DNA of 64,000 nucleotides from Nitrospirota bacterium (GTDB lineage: Bacteria; Nitrospirota; UBA9217). Positions within the stretch are counted from its first letter, which is position 1, and every line of letters starts with the position of its first letter. The position numbers and the translations under genes are program-made. This document shows positions 26,975 through 30,370 of this stretch, piece after piece. The stretch is taken from assembly GCA_963741205.1 (NCBI GenBank), contig CAVUHW010000031.1:32001-96000 (forward strand), written 5' to 3'. The notes beneath the pieces are model-generated. The model made no database searches, was not told the origin of the DNA, and saw only the letters and a program-made list of their open reading frames with translations.

Positions 26975-28162
26975 CTATCCCCGCATCTCCCGTATTTTCT
27001 TGATCATGATCGGCAGGACTTCATGGACGTCGCCGACGATGCCGTATGTCGCAACGTTGAAGATGGGCGCCTCGGGGTCCTTATTGATGGCCACGATCAC
27101 TTCCGACGACTGCATGCCGGCGACATGCTGGATAGCACCGGAGATGCCGCAGGCGATATAAAGCTTGGGGCAGACGGTCTTGCCGGTCTGTCCCACCTGA
27201 TGGGGATAGGGGACCCATCCCTCATCAACCGCTCCTCTCGTCGCAGCGACCGCGCCGCCGAGGGCTTTTGCGAGTTCCTCGATAAGATAAAAGTTTTTGG
27301 CGCTTCCGAGACCGCGTCCGCCGGCCACGACGATGTCCGCTTCGCAGATGTTTACTGTCTCGCCCAATTCTTCCACTGTCTTCATGACCCTGGTCCGGAG
27401 GTCTCCGGACTGCGTATACCTGATCTCGATGACCTCGCCGGTCCGGGAGCCGTCACGCACGGCAGGCTTCATCACCTTGTGCCGGACCGTGGCCATCTGA
27501 GGCCGGTGGTTCGGCGTCACGATGGTGGCCATGATGTTTCCGCCGAACGCGGGCCGTGTCTGGAGCAGGTGGCCGTTCTCGCCGTCGATGTCGAGCGCCG
27601 TGCAATCAGCCGTAAGGCCGGCATACAGAGCGGCAGCTACCTTGGGGAAGAAGGACCGGCCTATGGCCGTGGCGCCGGCGAGGATGATCTCGGGTTTGTG
27701 CTGGTGGGCGAGCGTCGTCAGGATCGCGGCGTAGGAGTCGTCATTGAAGTCCTTGAGCGCGGGATCATCGGCGACGTACACGATGTCGGCGCCGTGCGCG
27801 ATGAGTTCCTCTGCCTTGTCCCTGATGCCCGAGCCGATGAATACCGCCGACAGCTTGGTTTTTCTTTTATCGGCCAGTTTCCTTCCCTCACCGAGAAGTT
27901 CCAAGGCCACGCTGGCAATGCCGCCCTTGTGCTGTTCGGCAAAGACCCATACGCCCTTGTACGCGGAAAGGTCGGCGAGGGGGCCGGCCTCTTCCTCTCT
28001 CTCAATGGCCTTGAACTCGCAGACCTCGATGCAGGCTCCGCACATGGTGCAGGCTTCGGTGATGAAGGCCTTGCCGTCCTTCATTTCTATAGCGCCGAAG
28101 GGGCACGCGGTCACGCATTTTTCGCAGCACTCACATTTGTCCGATATGACGCGAACGCTCAC
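26975..28162 (-). CDS. etfA: Electron transfer flavoprotein alpha subunit with N-terminal 2[4Fe-4S] ferredoxin domain
   Basis: GTG start after [18 protein letters not shown] and [34 protein letters not shown]. Confidence 0.92.
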
Positions 28163-28254
28163 AGGAGACTCCTTAACAGAAGTGATGCAGGACTCAGGAT
28201 GCAGGCGGAAACAAGCTTTCATCGTAGTCTGCATCGTTCGGATCATGTCCTCGA

Positions 28255-29040
28255 TTATATCAACGACTGCTCTTTTAACTTCCTGACGACCGTTGCAACC
28301 TTTTCTTCCATGCTCCCGGTCAGGATCTCTCTCTGGCCGCGGGGGGCAGGCGGGAATATCTTGACGACCTTTGTCGGGGAACCCTTGAGGCCGCACTTGT
28401 CTTGATCGGCGCCGATGTCGCCGGCGCTCCAGCTTGATACCTTGAGGCCTTTTGCCTTCATCTTGCCCTTGAGCGAGGGAAGTCTCGGCTGGTTGATTTC
28501 TTTGACTACGGTTATGAGGGCGGGAAGGGACGTTTCGACCACGTCGTATCCCTCGTCCATGAGCCGCTCGGCCACCATCTTTTTTTCTTCGATCTGTTCG
28601 ATCTTCCTGATATAGGCGATGAAGGGGATGCCGAGCATATCGGCGGTCTCCGGCCCGACCTGGGCCGTGTCCCCGTCTATGGCCTGTTTGCCGGCTATAA
28701 TGAGGTCATAAGAGCCGATCTTCTTGATGCCCTGCGAGATGGCGTAGGATGTGGCCCAGGTATCGGCGCCGGCAAAAGCCCGGTCGGACAGGAGGACGAC
28801 ATCGTCCACGCCGTATGAGACGGCTTCCTTGAGCGCCTCGGCGGCCTGCGGCGGGCCCATGGTTACGGCGGTCACTTTGCCGCCGTGTTTTTCCCGCAGA
28901 CGGAGCGCTTCTTCGATGGCGTACATGTCAAAGGGGTTAATGATGCTGGGTACCCCCTCGCGGACCAGTGTGTTGGTCTCGCGGTTTATCTTGACCTCCG
29001 AGGTGTCCGGGACCTGTTTTACCAAGACGATGATGTTCAT
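28255..29040 (-). CDS. etfB: Electron transfer flavoprotein beta subunit
   Basis: VKQVPDT, INPFD, FAGADTWAT, GKQAIDGDTAQVGP, PRLPS. Confidence 0.93.
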   Translation of the reverse strand: MNIIVLVKQVPDTSEVKINRETNTLVREGVPSIINPFDMYAIEEALRLREKHGGKVTAVTMGPPQAAEALKEAVSYGVDDVVLLSDRAFAGADTWATSYAISQGIKKIGSYDLIIAGKQAIDGDTAQVGPETADMLGIPFIAYIRKIEQIEEKKMVAERLMDEGYDVVETSLPALITVVKEINQPRLPSLKGKMKAKGLKVSSWSAGDIGADQDKCGLKGSPTKVVKIFPPAPRGQREILTGSMEEKVATVVRKLKEQSLI

Positions 29041-29066
29041 GAGAATCTCCGCCGCGATAGCAATTT

Positions 29067-29169
29067 CCTCCCCCTTCAAGGGGGAGATCAGGTGGGGGAT
29101 GGGTTATTCACCCGATGACGCTTCGCTTTTGACCCATTCCCACCCCAGCCTTCCCCTTGAAGGGGAGGG
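29067..29169. repeat. Bipartite palindromic REP-like element (CTCCCCTTxAAGGGGAG family)
   Basis: CCTCCCCCTTCAAGGGGGAG...GGTGGGGGATGGGT facing ACCCATTCCCACC...TTCCCCTTGAAGGGGAGGG. Confidence 0.75.
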
Positions 29170-29212
29170 TGTTAGAACTTCGGATTTGCCATTGTCATTT
29201 GGCGCTTGCTTT

Positions 29213-30370
29213 TTATTTCTGTCTCGTCGCTTCCCTGATCATGTCCAGGGCGATGACGTTTCGCTGGATCTGGTTGGTGCCTTCGTAGATCTGGAGAATC
29301 TTGGCGTCGCGCATCATCTTCTCGACGGGGTATTCCTTCATGTAACCCGAGCCTCCCATGACCTGGACCGCGTCCGTGGTCACCTTCATCGCGACGTCGG
29401 TGGCGAACAGCTTGGCCATGGCGGATGCGCGGGAGACGTCCTTGGCCCCGGAGTCGATAAACCGCGCCACGGAGTACACGAGTGAACGCGCAGCTTCGGT
29501 CTGGGTCTGCATGTCGGCAAGCATGTGCTGGACCGCCTGGAAGGACGTCACGGGCTGGCCGAACTGCACCCGCTGCTTCGCGAACTTGATGGCTTCGTCG
29601 ATGGCCCCCTGCGCGACGCCCACCCCCTGGGCGCCTACGCCGGTACGGGAGCTGTCGAGGGTCTTCATGGCAACGATGAACCCCAGGCCTTCCTTGGAGA
29701 TAAGGTTCTCCCTGGGGATGCGGCAGTTGTTGAATATGAGTTCGGTCGTGGAGGAGGCTCGGATGCCCATCTTATTCTCTTTCTTGCCGAAGGTGAAGCC
29801 GGGCATGCCCTTCTCGACGATGAAGGCCGAGGCCCCGCGAGGGCCCTTGGACCTGTCGGTAATGGCGATGATGGTGTAGACTTCCGCCTCGCCGCCGTTC
29901 GTTATCCATTGTTTTGTGCCGTTCAGCACATACTCGTTGCCTTCGAGTTTCGCCGTGGTCTGTACGCCGCTCGCGTCGCTGCCGGCGTTGGCTTCCGTGA
30001 GTCCGAAAGCCGCGAATTTTTTACCCGTCGCGATATCGGGAAGATATTTCTTCTTCTGAGCATCGGAGCCGTTCAGAAGGATGGGATAGGTGCCGAGCGC
30101 GTTTGCGGCATAGCTTGTGGAAACCCCCACGCATGCCTTGGACAGTTCCTCGACAGTGATGCAGAGTTCCAGACTCTTTTTCCCCAGGCCGCCGTATTCT
30201 TCGGGGATGAAGAGGCCGAAGAGGTCTGCCTGGGCTATGGCCTTCATGACTTCCAAGGGGAATCTGTTGTGCTCATCGAGTTCGGCCCGTACCGGAACGA
30301 TCTTTTCCTGCGCGACCTGCCGGGCCAGGTCGCGGATCATGATTTGTTCTTCCGTCAGCAGATAATCCAT
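29213..30370 (-). CDS. Acyl-CoA dehydrogenase (butyryl-CoA dehydrogenase-like)
   Basis: FGLTEANAGSD, NGTKQWITNG, KMGIRAS, RVQFG, IYEGTNQIQR with catalytic Glu. Confidence 0.92.
   Translation of the reverse strand: MDYLLTEEQIMIRDLARQVAQEKIVPVRAELDEHNRFPLEVMKAIAQADLFGLFIPEEYGGLGKKSLELCITVEELSKACVGVSTSYAANALGTYPILLNGSDAQKKKYLPDIATGKKFAAFGLTEANAGSDASGVQTTAKLEGNEYVLNGTKQWITNGGEAEVYTIIAITDRSKGPRGASAFIVEKGMPGFTFGKKENKMGIRASSTTELIFNNCRIPRENLISKEGLGFIVAMKTLDSSRTGVGAQGVGVAQGAIDEAIKFAKQRVQFGQPVTSFQAVQHMLADMQTQTEAARSLVYSVARFIDSGAKDVSRASAMAKLFATDVAMKVTTDAVQVMGGSGYMKEYPVEKMMRDAKILQIYEGTNQIQRNVIALDMIREATRQK

Follow-up and report, generated by a model that had tools for sequence, protein, structure and literature searches.

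An acyl-CoA dehydrogenase-EtfBA module inside a Nitrospirota fatty acid synthesis operon is a candidate enoyl-ACP reductase

The window analysed here is a 64,000-nucleotide stretch of a Nitrospirota (Thermodesulfovibrionia-type) MAG with a completeness of about 84.5%, and the source organism is probably an anaerobe. A three-gene module, acd-etfB-etfA, is present at positions 26975-30370 on the minus strand, within a row of genes that all share this strand: yceD-rpmF-plsX-fabH-acd-etfB-etfA(ferredoxin-fused)-fabD-fabG-acpP-fabF-rnc (Table 1). The initial annotation, which did not give the strand, had placed three co-oriented genes between fabH and fabD, and open reading frames together with Pfam and TIGR matches confirm this arrangement. 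Similarly, the flanking FASII genes that it named are recovered, fabH and fabD by TIGR models and the others by ORFs, Pfam or translation. The consensus sigma70 promoter claimed ahead of the operon is also present, in a region where nine promoter-like sites were found and 4.3 are expected. Two genes are frameshifted in this assembly: the proper continuation of plsX is visible in another frame, and fabF, a single frame in relatives, is broken near 24390-24400 into ORFs that carry PF00109 positions 2-108 and 111-252. The rpmF product is taken to be L32 from its N-terminal motif. The etfA start codon is a GTG at 28162, preceded by AAGGAG. Among family relatives, acpP is 92-97% identical.

Table 1. 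Features of the operon, in order of transcription
Feature	Description	Position	Strand	Evidence
Promoter	sigma-70-type, TTGACA-17-TATAAT, upstream of yceD	33392..33420	-	12/12 consensus matches
yceD	DUF177, first gene of the operon	32846..33361	-	ORF; co-linear homologues in relatives (tblastn)
rpmF	ribosomal protein L32 (presumed)	32641..32826	-	translation
plsX	3' end out of frame in assembly	31560..32561	-	PF02504 over residues 1-256 only
fabH	beta-ketoacyl-ACP synthase III	30569..31549	-	TIGR00747 453 bits, cut-off 292
acd	acyl-CoA dehydrogenase family protein resembling Bcd, 385 aa; candidate catalytic subunit of an enoyl-ACP reductase	29213..30370	-	PF02771/PF02770/PF00441
etfB	small subunit of bifurcating-type ETF	28255..29040	-	PF01012 6.1e-51
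etfA	large ETF subunit, N-terminal 2x[4Fe-4S] ferredoxin domain, 395 aa	26975..28162	-	PF01012 + PF00766 + Fer4
fabD	malonyl-CoA:ACP transacylase	25939..26871	-	TIGR00128 339.8 bits, cut-off 260.9
fabG	3-oxoacyl-ACP reductase	25105..25851	-	PF13561 243 bits; co-linear in relatives
acpP	acyl carrier protein	24784..25026	-	ORF with DSLD motif; relatives
fabF	beta-ketoacyl-ACP synthase II	23418..24711	-	two overlapping ORFs, PF00109 + PF02801
rnc	RNase III, last gene of the row	22727..23416	-	ORF + start; named by eye from sequence

The acd product contains all three Pfam domains of the acyl-CoA dehydrogenase (ACAD) superfamily, that is, the N-terminal alpha (PF02771, 4.2e-35), middle beta (PF02770, 4.5e-27) and C-terminal alpha (PF00441, 5.8e-52) domains, and belongs to its Bcd/SCAD-like branch. 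The residues Y362-E363-G364-T365 are invariant in 25 orthologues, and the glutamate is presumably the catalytic one, judging by its position in MCAD and Bcd. Within its family Acd is 86-93% identical, a conservation equal to that of FabG. Acd reached no NCBIfam equivalog cut-off; its best model is the acryloyl-CoA reductase AcrC (469 bits, under the cut-off of 640), and scores on carrier-protein dehydrogenase models are far under their cut-offs (MbtN, 80.9/700; RedW, 260/650; PigA, 244.4/500). From its sequence, Acd would be classed only as a Bcd-like ACAD, with no feature seen that favours ACP over CoA. Acd, EtfB and EtfA match only ACAD, ETF and Fer4 families, and neither the SDR fold of FabI, FabL and FabV nor the NMO/TIM-barrel FMN fold of FabK. 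Therefore, if the module is an enoyl-ACP reductase (ENR), it lies outside the FabI, FabL, FabK and FabV families.

Both electron-transfer subunits resemble bifurcating rather than canonical ETFs. Against five solved bifurcating ETFs, EtfB scores 207-269 bits and EtfA 289-429 bits, versus at most 94 and 161 bits, respectively, against canonical ETFs. The top matches are CarD for EtfB (6fah_B, 269.5 bits) and CarE for EtfA (6fah_A, 429 bits), the latter aligned over residues 2-391 with the ferredoxin domain included. The two CxxCxxCxxxC motifs reported earlier in EtfA are both found at the N-terminus, where Fer4 matches and the CarE alignment agree, and this 8-Cys ferredoxin domain is present in 58 of 59 linked EtfAs. 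EtfAB is by sequence type a bifurcating (group 2) ETF, closest to CarDE.

The nearest known system is the caffeyl-CoA reductase-Etf complex CarCDE of Acetobacterium woodii (PDB 6FAH), which shares the order ACAD-EtfB-EtfA and the N-terminal 2x[4Fe-4S] ferredoxin domain of EtfA. Acd itself is nearer to Bcd, its best solved relatives being those of Bcd/EtfAB complexes (417 bits for C. difficile Bcd, 5ol2_C, and 403 bits), than to CarC (320 bits). The CarC substrate is an aromatic enoyl-CoA, reduced during caffeate respiration, whereas the module here is inside a FASII operon, in the place of the ENR gene. According to a review (PMC5861303), CarCDE contains three FAD and two [4Fe-4S] clusters and couples NADH oxidation to ferredoxin reduction. 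Bcd/EtfAB complexes have an ETF of bifurcating type, as here, and share with the proposed module reaction the reduction of a trans-2-enoyl thioester. However, their ETFs have no ferredoxin domain (alignments begin at residue 75-77 of the module EtfA), and they act on a C4 CoA ester in butyrate fermentation, whereas no crotonase, Hbd or thiolase gene lies within the fetched flanks of the best 80 acd loci drawn from 185,579 species genomes.

Comparison of operons in related bacteria suggests what this place may mean. Nitrospirota with a bona fide FabK have the operon yceD-plsX-fabH-fabK-fabD-fabG-acpP-fabF in all four fetched genomes (G025, G034, G094, and G030), and in family f16 a FabI-like SDR lies between fabH and fabD in both fetched genomes (G152 and G137). 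The module therefore occupies the slot in which related bacteria keep their ENR gene, and it is thus probably a new kind of ENR. FabK and FabI/FabL would share this role with the module, but are otherwise dissimilar: FabK (FMN, ENR II) and FabI/FabL (SDR) have folds unrelated to Acd, a single subunit, and use one NAD(P)H per reduction with no ferredoxin.

The synteny proved to be conserved across phyla. The full operon is found in 12 of 15 fetched relatives, and among the best 80 loci acd is co-oriented and at most 6 kb from a FASII gene in 44, of which 35 also have etfBA. Within the same 80 loci, the module is beside FASII genes in at least five gene orders and at least eight phylum-level labels. 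In 5/5 cases of a relocated acd, etfB-etfA-fabD are still adjacent. Several phyla have the module after fabF, or in operons without an adjoining fabH. Additionally, 13 related loci, mostly in Bacillota, have acd-etfBA with no nearby fab gene.

If the module replaces known ENRs, then the two are not expected to co-occur. Among 151 Nitrospirota genomes (completeness at least 90%, except the window's own), 84 have an Acd orthologue (E<=1e-140) and 48 have FabI (E<=1e-60); no genome and no family has both. FabK is above cut-off in four genomes, none with Acd, and FabL in none of those searched. Similarly, among 101 Omnitrophota genomes, 44 have an Acd orthologue, 44 have a FabI-model match (E<=1e-35), none has both and 13 have neither. 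In both phyla the counts cover non-independent kin and may reflect as little as a single switch, or a few, per phylum. The proposed anticorrelation is thus seen in two phyla as mutual exclusion of Acd and FabI. The exclusion is not universal. For instance, among 28 genomes of other phyla whose fab cluster includes the module, three also have FabL above cut-off (G057, G066, and G067) and four encode proteins that are closer to FabK than FabX (G046, G052, G059, and G064), while G071 has acd in the operon without etf together with a true FabI (425 bits).

The initial annotation had noted no fabI, fabK, fabL or fabV in the window, and indeed no ENR model matched anything on its contig other than fabG. 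In the window's genome, 84.5% complete, and in complete relatives, no known ENR was found either. Four complete genomes, G036 (one contig, 100%), G002 (two contigs, 100%), G027 (100%), and G053 (a closed 1.14-Mb chromosome), have Acd and FabZ and no match to FabI, FabK, FabL or FabV, although both FabV models matched no genome at all, controls included, and the absence of FabV is not validated. The module is encoded with FASII genes and is present where no other ENR was found, as in these complete genomes, which keep the remainder of FASII.

The only FabK-like protein of the source genome (G000) is encoded outside the window, on contig C6. It is an NMO-like homologue of Helicobacter pylori FabX (7E1Q, 217.7 bits over the full length, versus 78.8 bits for FabK) with a Cys-rich C-terminal part, although its Cys spacing is unlike FabX C300/C304/C308/C320. 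This [4Fe-4S] flavoprotein could be the real ENR, working reductively with ferredoxin and leaving Acd-Etf an accessory redox role: all 12 Acd-bearing Nitrospirota of a 74-genome set encode a FabX-like protein, which scores 92-138 bits with the FabK model, and FabX is a FabK superfamily member that binds acyl-ACP in H. pylori, according to PMC8626469. However, the same paper describes H. pylori FabX as a dehydrogenase/isomerase alongside FabI, and FabX-like proteins also occur beside a true FabK or FabI (G025, G028, and G037). No match was found at E<=1e-30 in 38 of 44 Acd-bearing Omnitrophota (the NMO/FabK-like matches in the other six are all under cut-off) or at E<=1e-20 in 13 of the 28 module-bearing genomes of other phyla, and in G036 the gene has no fab linkage within the 13 kb fetched. 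This explanation is therefore very improbable.

A distinctly unlikely explanation, though a more probable one, is that the complex acts on CoA thioesters (crotonyl- or branched enoyl-CoA), for FabH primers or another CoA pathway, and that the true ENR is an unrecognised one, for instance of the MDR type. The nearest characterised relatives are all CoA-thioester enzymes, the protein is listed in databases as a butyryl-CoA or acyl-CoA dehydrogenase, and fabH is directly upstream. Additionally, MDR-family reductases are present in four of the five complete carriers checked, and a thiolase-crotonase-Hbd cluster on contig C30 could make crotonyl-CoA. The window itself has no such genes, as noted before: E. 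coli PaaF/PaaH/PaaJ tblastn matches are only on contigs C30, C18, and C10. However, primer supply predicts neither the complete separation from FabI over 151 + 101 genomes nor the use of fabK's slot, and it does not account for the phyla in which the module is after fabF or without an adjacent fabH, or for the lack of beta-oxidation-type genes near acd in the best 80 loci. G213 (0.9 Mb) has Acd and no MDR match.

Desaturation, like primer supply, had been offered earlier as an alternative, and neither explains FabI exclusion or the shared slot. In an oxidative version, the module would be an acyl-ACP dehydrogenase that confurcates electrons to NAD+ and yields, for instance, unsaturated or modified fatty acids. 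ACADs normally oxidise, and MbtN, RedW, and PigA, to whose models Acd has weak matches, indicate that the ACAD fold can accept a phosphopantetheine-tethered carrier-protein substrate. These enzymes nonetheless oxidise in secondary metabolism with dedicated carriers, whereas the module's Acd pairs with a bifurcating-type ETF and scores far under their cut-offs. An oxidative module would also leave the FASII of complete genomes without any ENR, and backtracking dehydrogenation is already offered by the FabX homologue. This version is thus hardly credible. As a side observation, anaerobic-type unsaturated fatty acid synthesis is already covered by the FabX homologue.

The operon slot, FabI exclusion, synteny, and lack of another ENR in complete genomes thus lend support to the earlier suggestion of enoyl-ACP reduction, for which the complex is a candidate. 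Overall, it is probable that Acd-EtfB-EtfA is a bifurcating complex of the CarCDE/Bcd-EtfAB type that serves as the FASII ENR here and in many other anaerobes, replacing FabI, FabK, FabL or FabV. The substrate would be an ACP thioester, presumably of C4-C18 chain length, and by analogy enoyl reduction would be coupled to ferredoxin reduction. In analogy with solved relatives, NADH would reduce the bifurcating FAD on EtfB; the first electron would then pass to the mobile FAD of EtfA and on to the FAD of Acd, while the second, moving uphill, would reach ferredoxin by way of the two [4Fe-4S] clusters in the N-terminal domain of EtfA. Once this has happened twice, the reduced Acd-FAD would donate a hydride to C3 of trans-2-enoyl-ACP, with C2 protonated by the conserved YEGT glutamate. 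The net reaction would be enoyl-ACP + 2 NADH + 2 Fd(ox) -> acyl-ACP + 2 NAD+ + 2 Fd(red), and the module may thus recover energy during lipid synthesis.

Bifurcation is suggested by homology only, and the evidence for an ENR fits equally well with a complex in which the ETF hands Acd the electrons of NADH, or those of reduced ferredoxin by way of the Fe-S domain, and no energy is coupled. PMC12630350 offers a precedent in Fusobacterium nucleatum, whose Bcd is served by a canonical, non-bifurcating ETF. However, the two ETF subunits of the module reach 207-429 bits with bifurcating ETFs but no more than 161 with canonical ones, and the CarE-type ferredoxin domain is retained in nearly all linked EtfAs. 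An ENR without bifurcation is therefore unlikely, if still a reading to reckon with.

The ENR step sets the pace of bacterial fatty acid synthesis and pulls the cycle through; to our knowledge, it is known to be catalysed by just a handful of enzyme classes, which are not homologous (FabI, FabL, FabK, and FabV). The module is a well-supported candidate for a further, apparently unreported class; a full-text literature search did not find such an enzyme reported, and the available part of a 2018 historical review of bifurcation mentions neither fatty acid synthesis nor acyl carrier protein. If the assignment is true, then this class would differ in fold, comprise three subunits with three flavins and Fe-S clusters, be unrelated to all classes hit by current inhibitors, and bring flavin-based electron bifurcation into a core anabolic pathway for the first time, with two reduced ferredoxins per elongation cycle and 14 per palmitate. 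It would explain the apparent absence of an ENR from annotations of large anaerobe groups, alter how redox and energy are budgeted when sulfate reducers and ultra-small Omnitrophota are modelled, and bear on the reading of lipid hydrogen-isotope signatures. More tentatively, and at somewhat less than even chances, a bifurcating ACAD/ETF complex ends every elongation cycle in many strictly anaerobic lineages, coupling anabolism to energy conservation. The lineages concerned include Thermodesulfovibrionia-type Nitrospirota, Thermodesulfobacteriota, Omnitrophota, Margulisiibacteriota, Saganbacteria, and Rokuibacteriota, among others.

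The initial annotation proposed that acd-etfB-etfA, a module encoding a Bcd-like acyl-CoA dehydrogenase (ACAD), EtfB, and an EtfA with an N-terminal ferredoxin domain, is an electron-bifurcating enoyl-ACP reductase (ENR) of the type II fatty acid synthesis (FASII) operon. Comparative tests of the slot between fabH and fabD, of distribution, of synteny, and of complete genomes appear to bear out the ENR reading at the sequence level, and the module is quite probably a FASII ENR, bifurcating or not. The full statement, that Acd, EtfB, and EtfA constitute a bifurcating FASII ENR of the CarCDE/Bcd-EtfAB type, is favoured with less assurance, and that the module also bifurcates and serves widely as the main ENR is put forward tentatively.

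Contig C31, which contains the window, belongs to a metagenome-assembled genome of 4.27 Mb (50 contigs, 84.5% complete, 4.9% contaminated). Every gene of the operon yceD-rpmF-plsX-fabH-acd-etfB-etfA-fabD-fabG-acpP-fabF-rnc is carried by the minus strand, and the order and Pfam/NCBIfam identities of the three co-oriented genes between fabH and fabD, as well as the consensus sigma70 promoter upstream, were confirmed. The most likely start of etfA, judging from its sequence, is the GTG at 28162, with AAGGAG six bases ahead, which would give a protein of 395 aa. Frameshifts are present at the 3' end of plsX (window 31560-31830) and in fabF (about 24390-24400), both of which are single frames in relatives. 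Comparable frame breaks occur on other contigs of the same genome (fabG-like on C8, fabF-like on C30 and C8), and the plsX and fabF breaks suggest assembly indel errors, not pseudogenes. For window 25900-31600, DNA shares were at most 0.20 in soil and sediment metagenome runs, and no RNA run was listed. Next to the promoter, on its upstream side, the opposite strand carries a 310-aa ORF (33751-34683, plus strand) with a C-terminal CxxC...CxxC and 'HNAAENI' that by eye resembles an IS200/IS605-family OrfB/TnpB; downstream of rnc is a 335-aa ORF (21638-22645, minus strand, start MIIPFFIPHAGCPHQCVYCNQ) that by its CxxxCxxC motif resembles a radical-SAM protein.

Features of the FASII operon, in window coordinates
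Feature	Position	Strand	Basis and remarks
promoter TTGACA-17-TATAAT	33420-33392	-	sequence match; perfect consensus
yceD	33361-32846	-	
rpmF	32826-32641	-	named by eye
plsX	32561-31560	-	Pfam; frameshifted in assembly
fabH	31549-30569	-	Pfam/NCBIfam
acd	30370-29213	-	Pfam/NCBIfam; intact frame
etfB	29040-28255	-	Pfam/NCBIfam; intact frame
etfA	28162-26975	-	Pfam/NCBIfam; intact frame
fabD	26871-25939	-	Pfam/NCBIfam
fabG	25851-25105	-	Pfam/NCBIfam
acpP	25026-24784	-	
fabF	24711-23418	-	Pfam; frameshifted in assembly
rnc	23416-22727	-	named by eye

Among solved structures, Acd is most similar to C. difficile Bcd as solved with EtfAB (5ol2_C, 417 bits); it scores 403 bits against A. fermentans Bcd (4l1f_A), and is thus nearer to Bcd than to CarC of A. 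woodii CarCDE (320 bits). It reaches no NCBIfam equivalog cut-off (AcrC, 469 bits versus 640 needed) and falls far under those of the carrier-protein dehydrogenase models RedW, PigA, and MbtN. Its YEGT motif, the Glu of which we take to be the catalytic Glu of ACADs, does not vary among 25 orthologues. EtfB and EtfA score 207-429 bits against five solved ETFs that we take to be bifurcating (CarDE, LctBC, and those of T. maritima, C. difficile, and A. fermentans), versus at most 161 bits against canonical ETFs. For these five, Table 1 of PMC5861303 confirms bifurcating status in part. EtfA is collinear with CarE from residue 2 and has both of the initially noted CxxCxxCxxxC motifs. The ferredoxin domain is consistently kept: of 59 EtfA homologues lying next to Acd or fabD at the loci fetched, 58 have at least eight Cys in the N-terminal part.

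If the module works as Bcd-EtfAB and CarCDE do, it would carry out the net reaction 2 NADH + 2 Fd(ox) + trans-2-enoyl-ACP -> 2 NAD+ + 2 Fd(red) + acyl-ACP, with the ferredoxin domain of EtfA as the putative electron exit wire. From the same relatives, we infer that the substrate would be ACP-bound, that long chains would be accepted, and that reduction would be coupled to ferredoxin. An ENR role for an ACAD/ETF module is probably unreported: no paper describing such a complex as an enoyl-ACP reductase was found in the main texts of openly accessible papers, neither 'acyl carrier' nor 'fatty acid synthesis' occurs in the bifurcation review PMC5861303, and the source-database names of the 120 nearest Acd homologues are only butyryl-CoA dehydrogenase, acyl-CoA dehydrogenase family, and AidB-like.

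Known ENRs were sought with models of the FabI, FabK, FabL, and FabV families. In the window's own genome, the top matches to the FabI model (73 bits) and the FabL model (188 bits; cut-off 328) are both fabG, and the five top-scoring SDRs are FabG-like or other SDRs. The top FabK match is 105 bits, on contig C6, versus a cut-off of 453. FabV (PF12241, NF010177) was matched in no genome, nor in 14 control genomes, and that search is unvalidated. FabZ is encoded; together with these searches, this leaves a gene for every FASII step except enoyl reduction. Because the window's genome is incomplete, complete relatives were examined: G002 (100%, 2 contigs), G036 (100%, 1 contig), G027 (100%), and G053 (recorded as a closed chromosome of 1.14 Mb). 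All four encode Acd and FabZ, and at the thresholds used none has a match to FabI, FabK, FabL, or, in the unvalidated search, FabV. For FabV, this amounts to a lack of matches, not to demonstrated absence. PF00107 (MDR) proteins are candidate hidden ENRs, with eight matches in G002, three each in G036 and G027, and one in G053; compared genome G213 has no PF00107 match.

The C6 protein (75999-77240, minus strand; L001:1261-2502) is a flavoprotein of the NMO family whose C-terminal part is rich in Cys. It is a FabX homologue, matching H. pylori FabX (7e1q) over its full length at 217.7 bits, versus 78.8 for the best FabK. FabX is described in PMC8626469 as an enzyme of unsaturated fatty acid synthesis, a decanoyl-ACP dehydrogenase/isomerase acting alongside FabI. 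Homologues of the C6 protein were found in many Acd-bearing genomes. The 'backtracking' desaturation by FabX is O2-linked.

The slot was compared in fab operons fetched from Nitrospirota without an Acd orthologue. All four FabK bearers (G025, G034, and G094 of family f2; G030 of f7) have the order yceD-plsX-fabH-fabK-fabD-fabG-acpP-fabF, and the window's family has acd-etfB-etfA between fabH and fabD. Family f16 seemed a counter-example, with Acd, FabI (at 1e-60), or FabK in 0/12 genomes, until a FabI-like SDR was found in the slot. An SDR of ~270 aa that scores 101-106 bits on the FabI model is present in 5/5 f16 genomes. In both fetched f16 operons, it lies in the slot (G152, L170 6255-7040; G137, L171 6574-7353; ~260 aa, 101-105 bits); it is about 27% identical to FabG and is likely, from its sequence, an unclassified FabI/FabL-like ENR of that genus. 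Such slot sharing is what in-situ non-orthologous displacement of a single function, the ENR, would be expected to produce.

The distributions of Acd and FabI are complementary. Across 151 Nitrospirota genomes (150 at least 90% complete, plus the window's own), an Acd orthologue (E<=1e-140) is present in 84 genomes of 14 families (35/38 in f1, 7/7 in f3, 2/2 in f4, 12/12 in f11, 10/10 in f15, and others). FabI (E<=1e-60, 229-342 bits) is present in 48, namely all of f5, f6, f7, f8, f9, f10, and f18, and at that threshold is absent from every Acd family. FabK exceeds its cut-off in four genomes (f2 3/3, f7 1/1) and FabL in none of the 151. Sub-threshold NMO matches occur in the Acd-bearing G010 (191 bits), G162 (198), and G174 (164), and further ones in G018 and G160; the sole match in the single f20 genome is an NMO protein (156 bits). 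In 101 Omnitrophota genomes drawn around G053, 44 have an Acd orthologue (E<=1e-120, 59-71% identity) and 44 a FabI-model match (E<=1e-35), none has both, and 13 have neither. Thirty of these FabI-model matches score at least 264 bits and 14 score 132-151, a range also given by FabL-type proteins. FabK-model matches (E<=1e-30, 123-190 bits) occur in seven genomes, six of them Acd-bearing, and the ORFs are of FabX-like size (361-378 aa). The two phyla thus agree on Acd/FabI exclusion; no P-value is given because kin are not independent.

The predicted anticorrelation with known ENRs holds for FabI in these two phyla and has exceptions. Of the 28 genomes from other phyla whose fab cluster holds the module (G041-G068), three also encode FabL above cut-off (G057 and the Desulfobulbales-type G066 and G067), four have proteins nearer FabK than FabX-like protein (G046, G052, G059, G064), nine have nothing beyond Cys-rich NMO proteins of FabX-like or intermediate type, and 12 have no match to any ENR model searched. 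Four genomes have acd in the operon but no etf next to it (G069-G072); among these, a true FabI is found in G071 and FabK-like proteins in G069 and G070. Eight Bacillota-type genomes keep acd-etfBA apart from fab genes; three of these encode FabI, and one a FabK-like protein. The module therefore cannot be the only ENR in every carrier. Bacteria often have redundant ENRs, and thus co-occurrence does not refute an ENR role. The named carriers belong to lineages that we take to be anaerobes, and a link between ENR type and oxygen lifestyle is only a suggestion.

Conservation of the fab-operon synteny was also upheld. In a first set of 41 relatives (a count that takes in the window's own genome), an Acd match (E<=1e-60) is present in 32 and in 24/24 genomes of the window's family; of these 24, 21 are single at 86-93% identity, two are in two pieces (G006 and G018), and the sole match in G011 is a 37% paralogue. 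The full operon is present in 12 of 15 fetched regions. In G020, yceD-plsX-fabH-acd-etfB-etfA is kept and the downstream part differs: etfA (L047) is not followed by fabD-fabG-acpP-fabF, and the only fabD-like gene there, 37% identical, is 2.5 kb away on the far side. Two genomes, G027 and G036, have acd alone amid unrelated ORFs, with no homologue of the window's fab operon near it by tblastn; in all five genomes where acd is alone (these and three more), etfB-etfA(Fd) is directly upstream of fabD. In G018 (L162, C48, 7704-8805), acd lacks residues 143-164 and has a frame change in an otherwise intact operon, and a FabK-like gene is encoded elsewhere (258 bits on the FabK model); the damage may be natural replacement under way or an assembly fault.

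A wider scan, with each of 185,579 species represented by a single genome, gave more than 591 relatives. Of the 80 best (67-93% identity), 35 loci have acd together with both etfBA and a FASII gene, co-oriented and no more than 6 kb apart, nine have the FASII gene only, 13 etfBA only, and 23 neither; most of the last are Thermodesulfovibrionales of the type with etfBA-fabD elsewhere, and several contigs end early. Linked loci among these 80 carry at least eight phylum-level labels: Nitrospirota, Thermodesulfobacteriota, 'Deltaproteobacteria'/Myxococcota, Pseudomonadota, Actinomycetota, Rokuibacteriota, Omnitrophota, and Margulisiibacteriota/Saganbacteria. The gene orders include fabH-acd-etfBA-fabD-, fabH-acd-etfBA-fabG-, plsX-acd-etfBA-, fabG-acpP-fabF-acd-etfBA, and plsX-acd-fabD without etf; linkage thus survives rearrangement, which favours shared function over a frozen operon. 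In L077 (9155-12274), an insertion of ~3 kb separates acd from etfB. In a quick FastTree analysis of 81 orthologues, for which three long-branched paralogues (38-45%) served as the root and characterised Bcd was left out, taxonomy is broadly followed, FAS-linked rows are on the deepest branches, and one Bacillota clade is without fab neighbours.

No crotonase, Hbd, or thiolase gene was found in the flanks of the best 80 loci. Elsewhere in the window's genome, a thiolase-crotonase-Hbd cluster is present on contig C30 (46330-49277; tblastn with E. coli PaaJ, PaaF, and PaaH) and an Acd paralogue (38% identity) on contig C5, so some beta-oxidation at the CoA level, or the reverse pathway, exists outside the fab operon.
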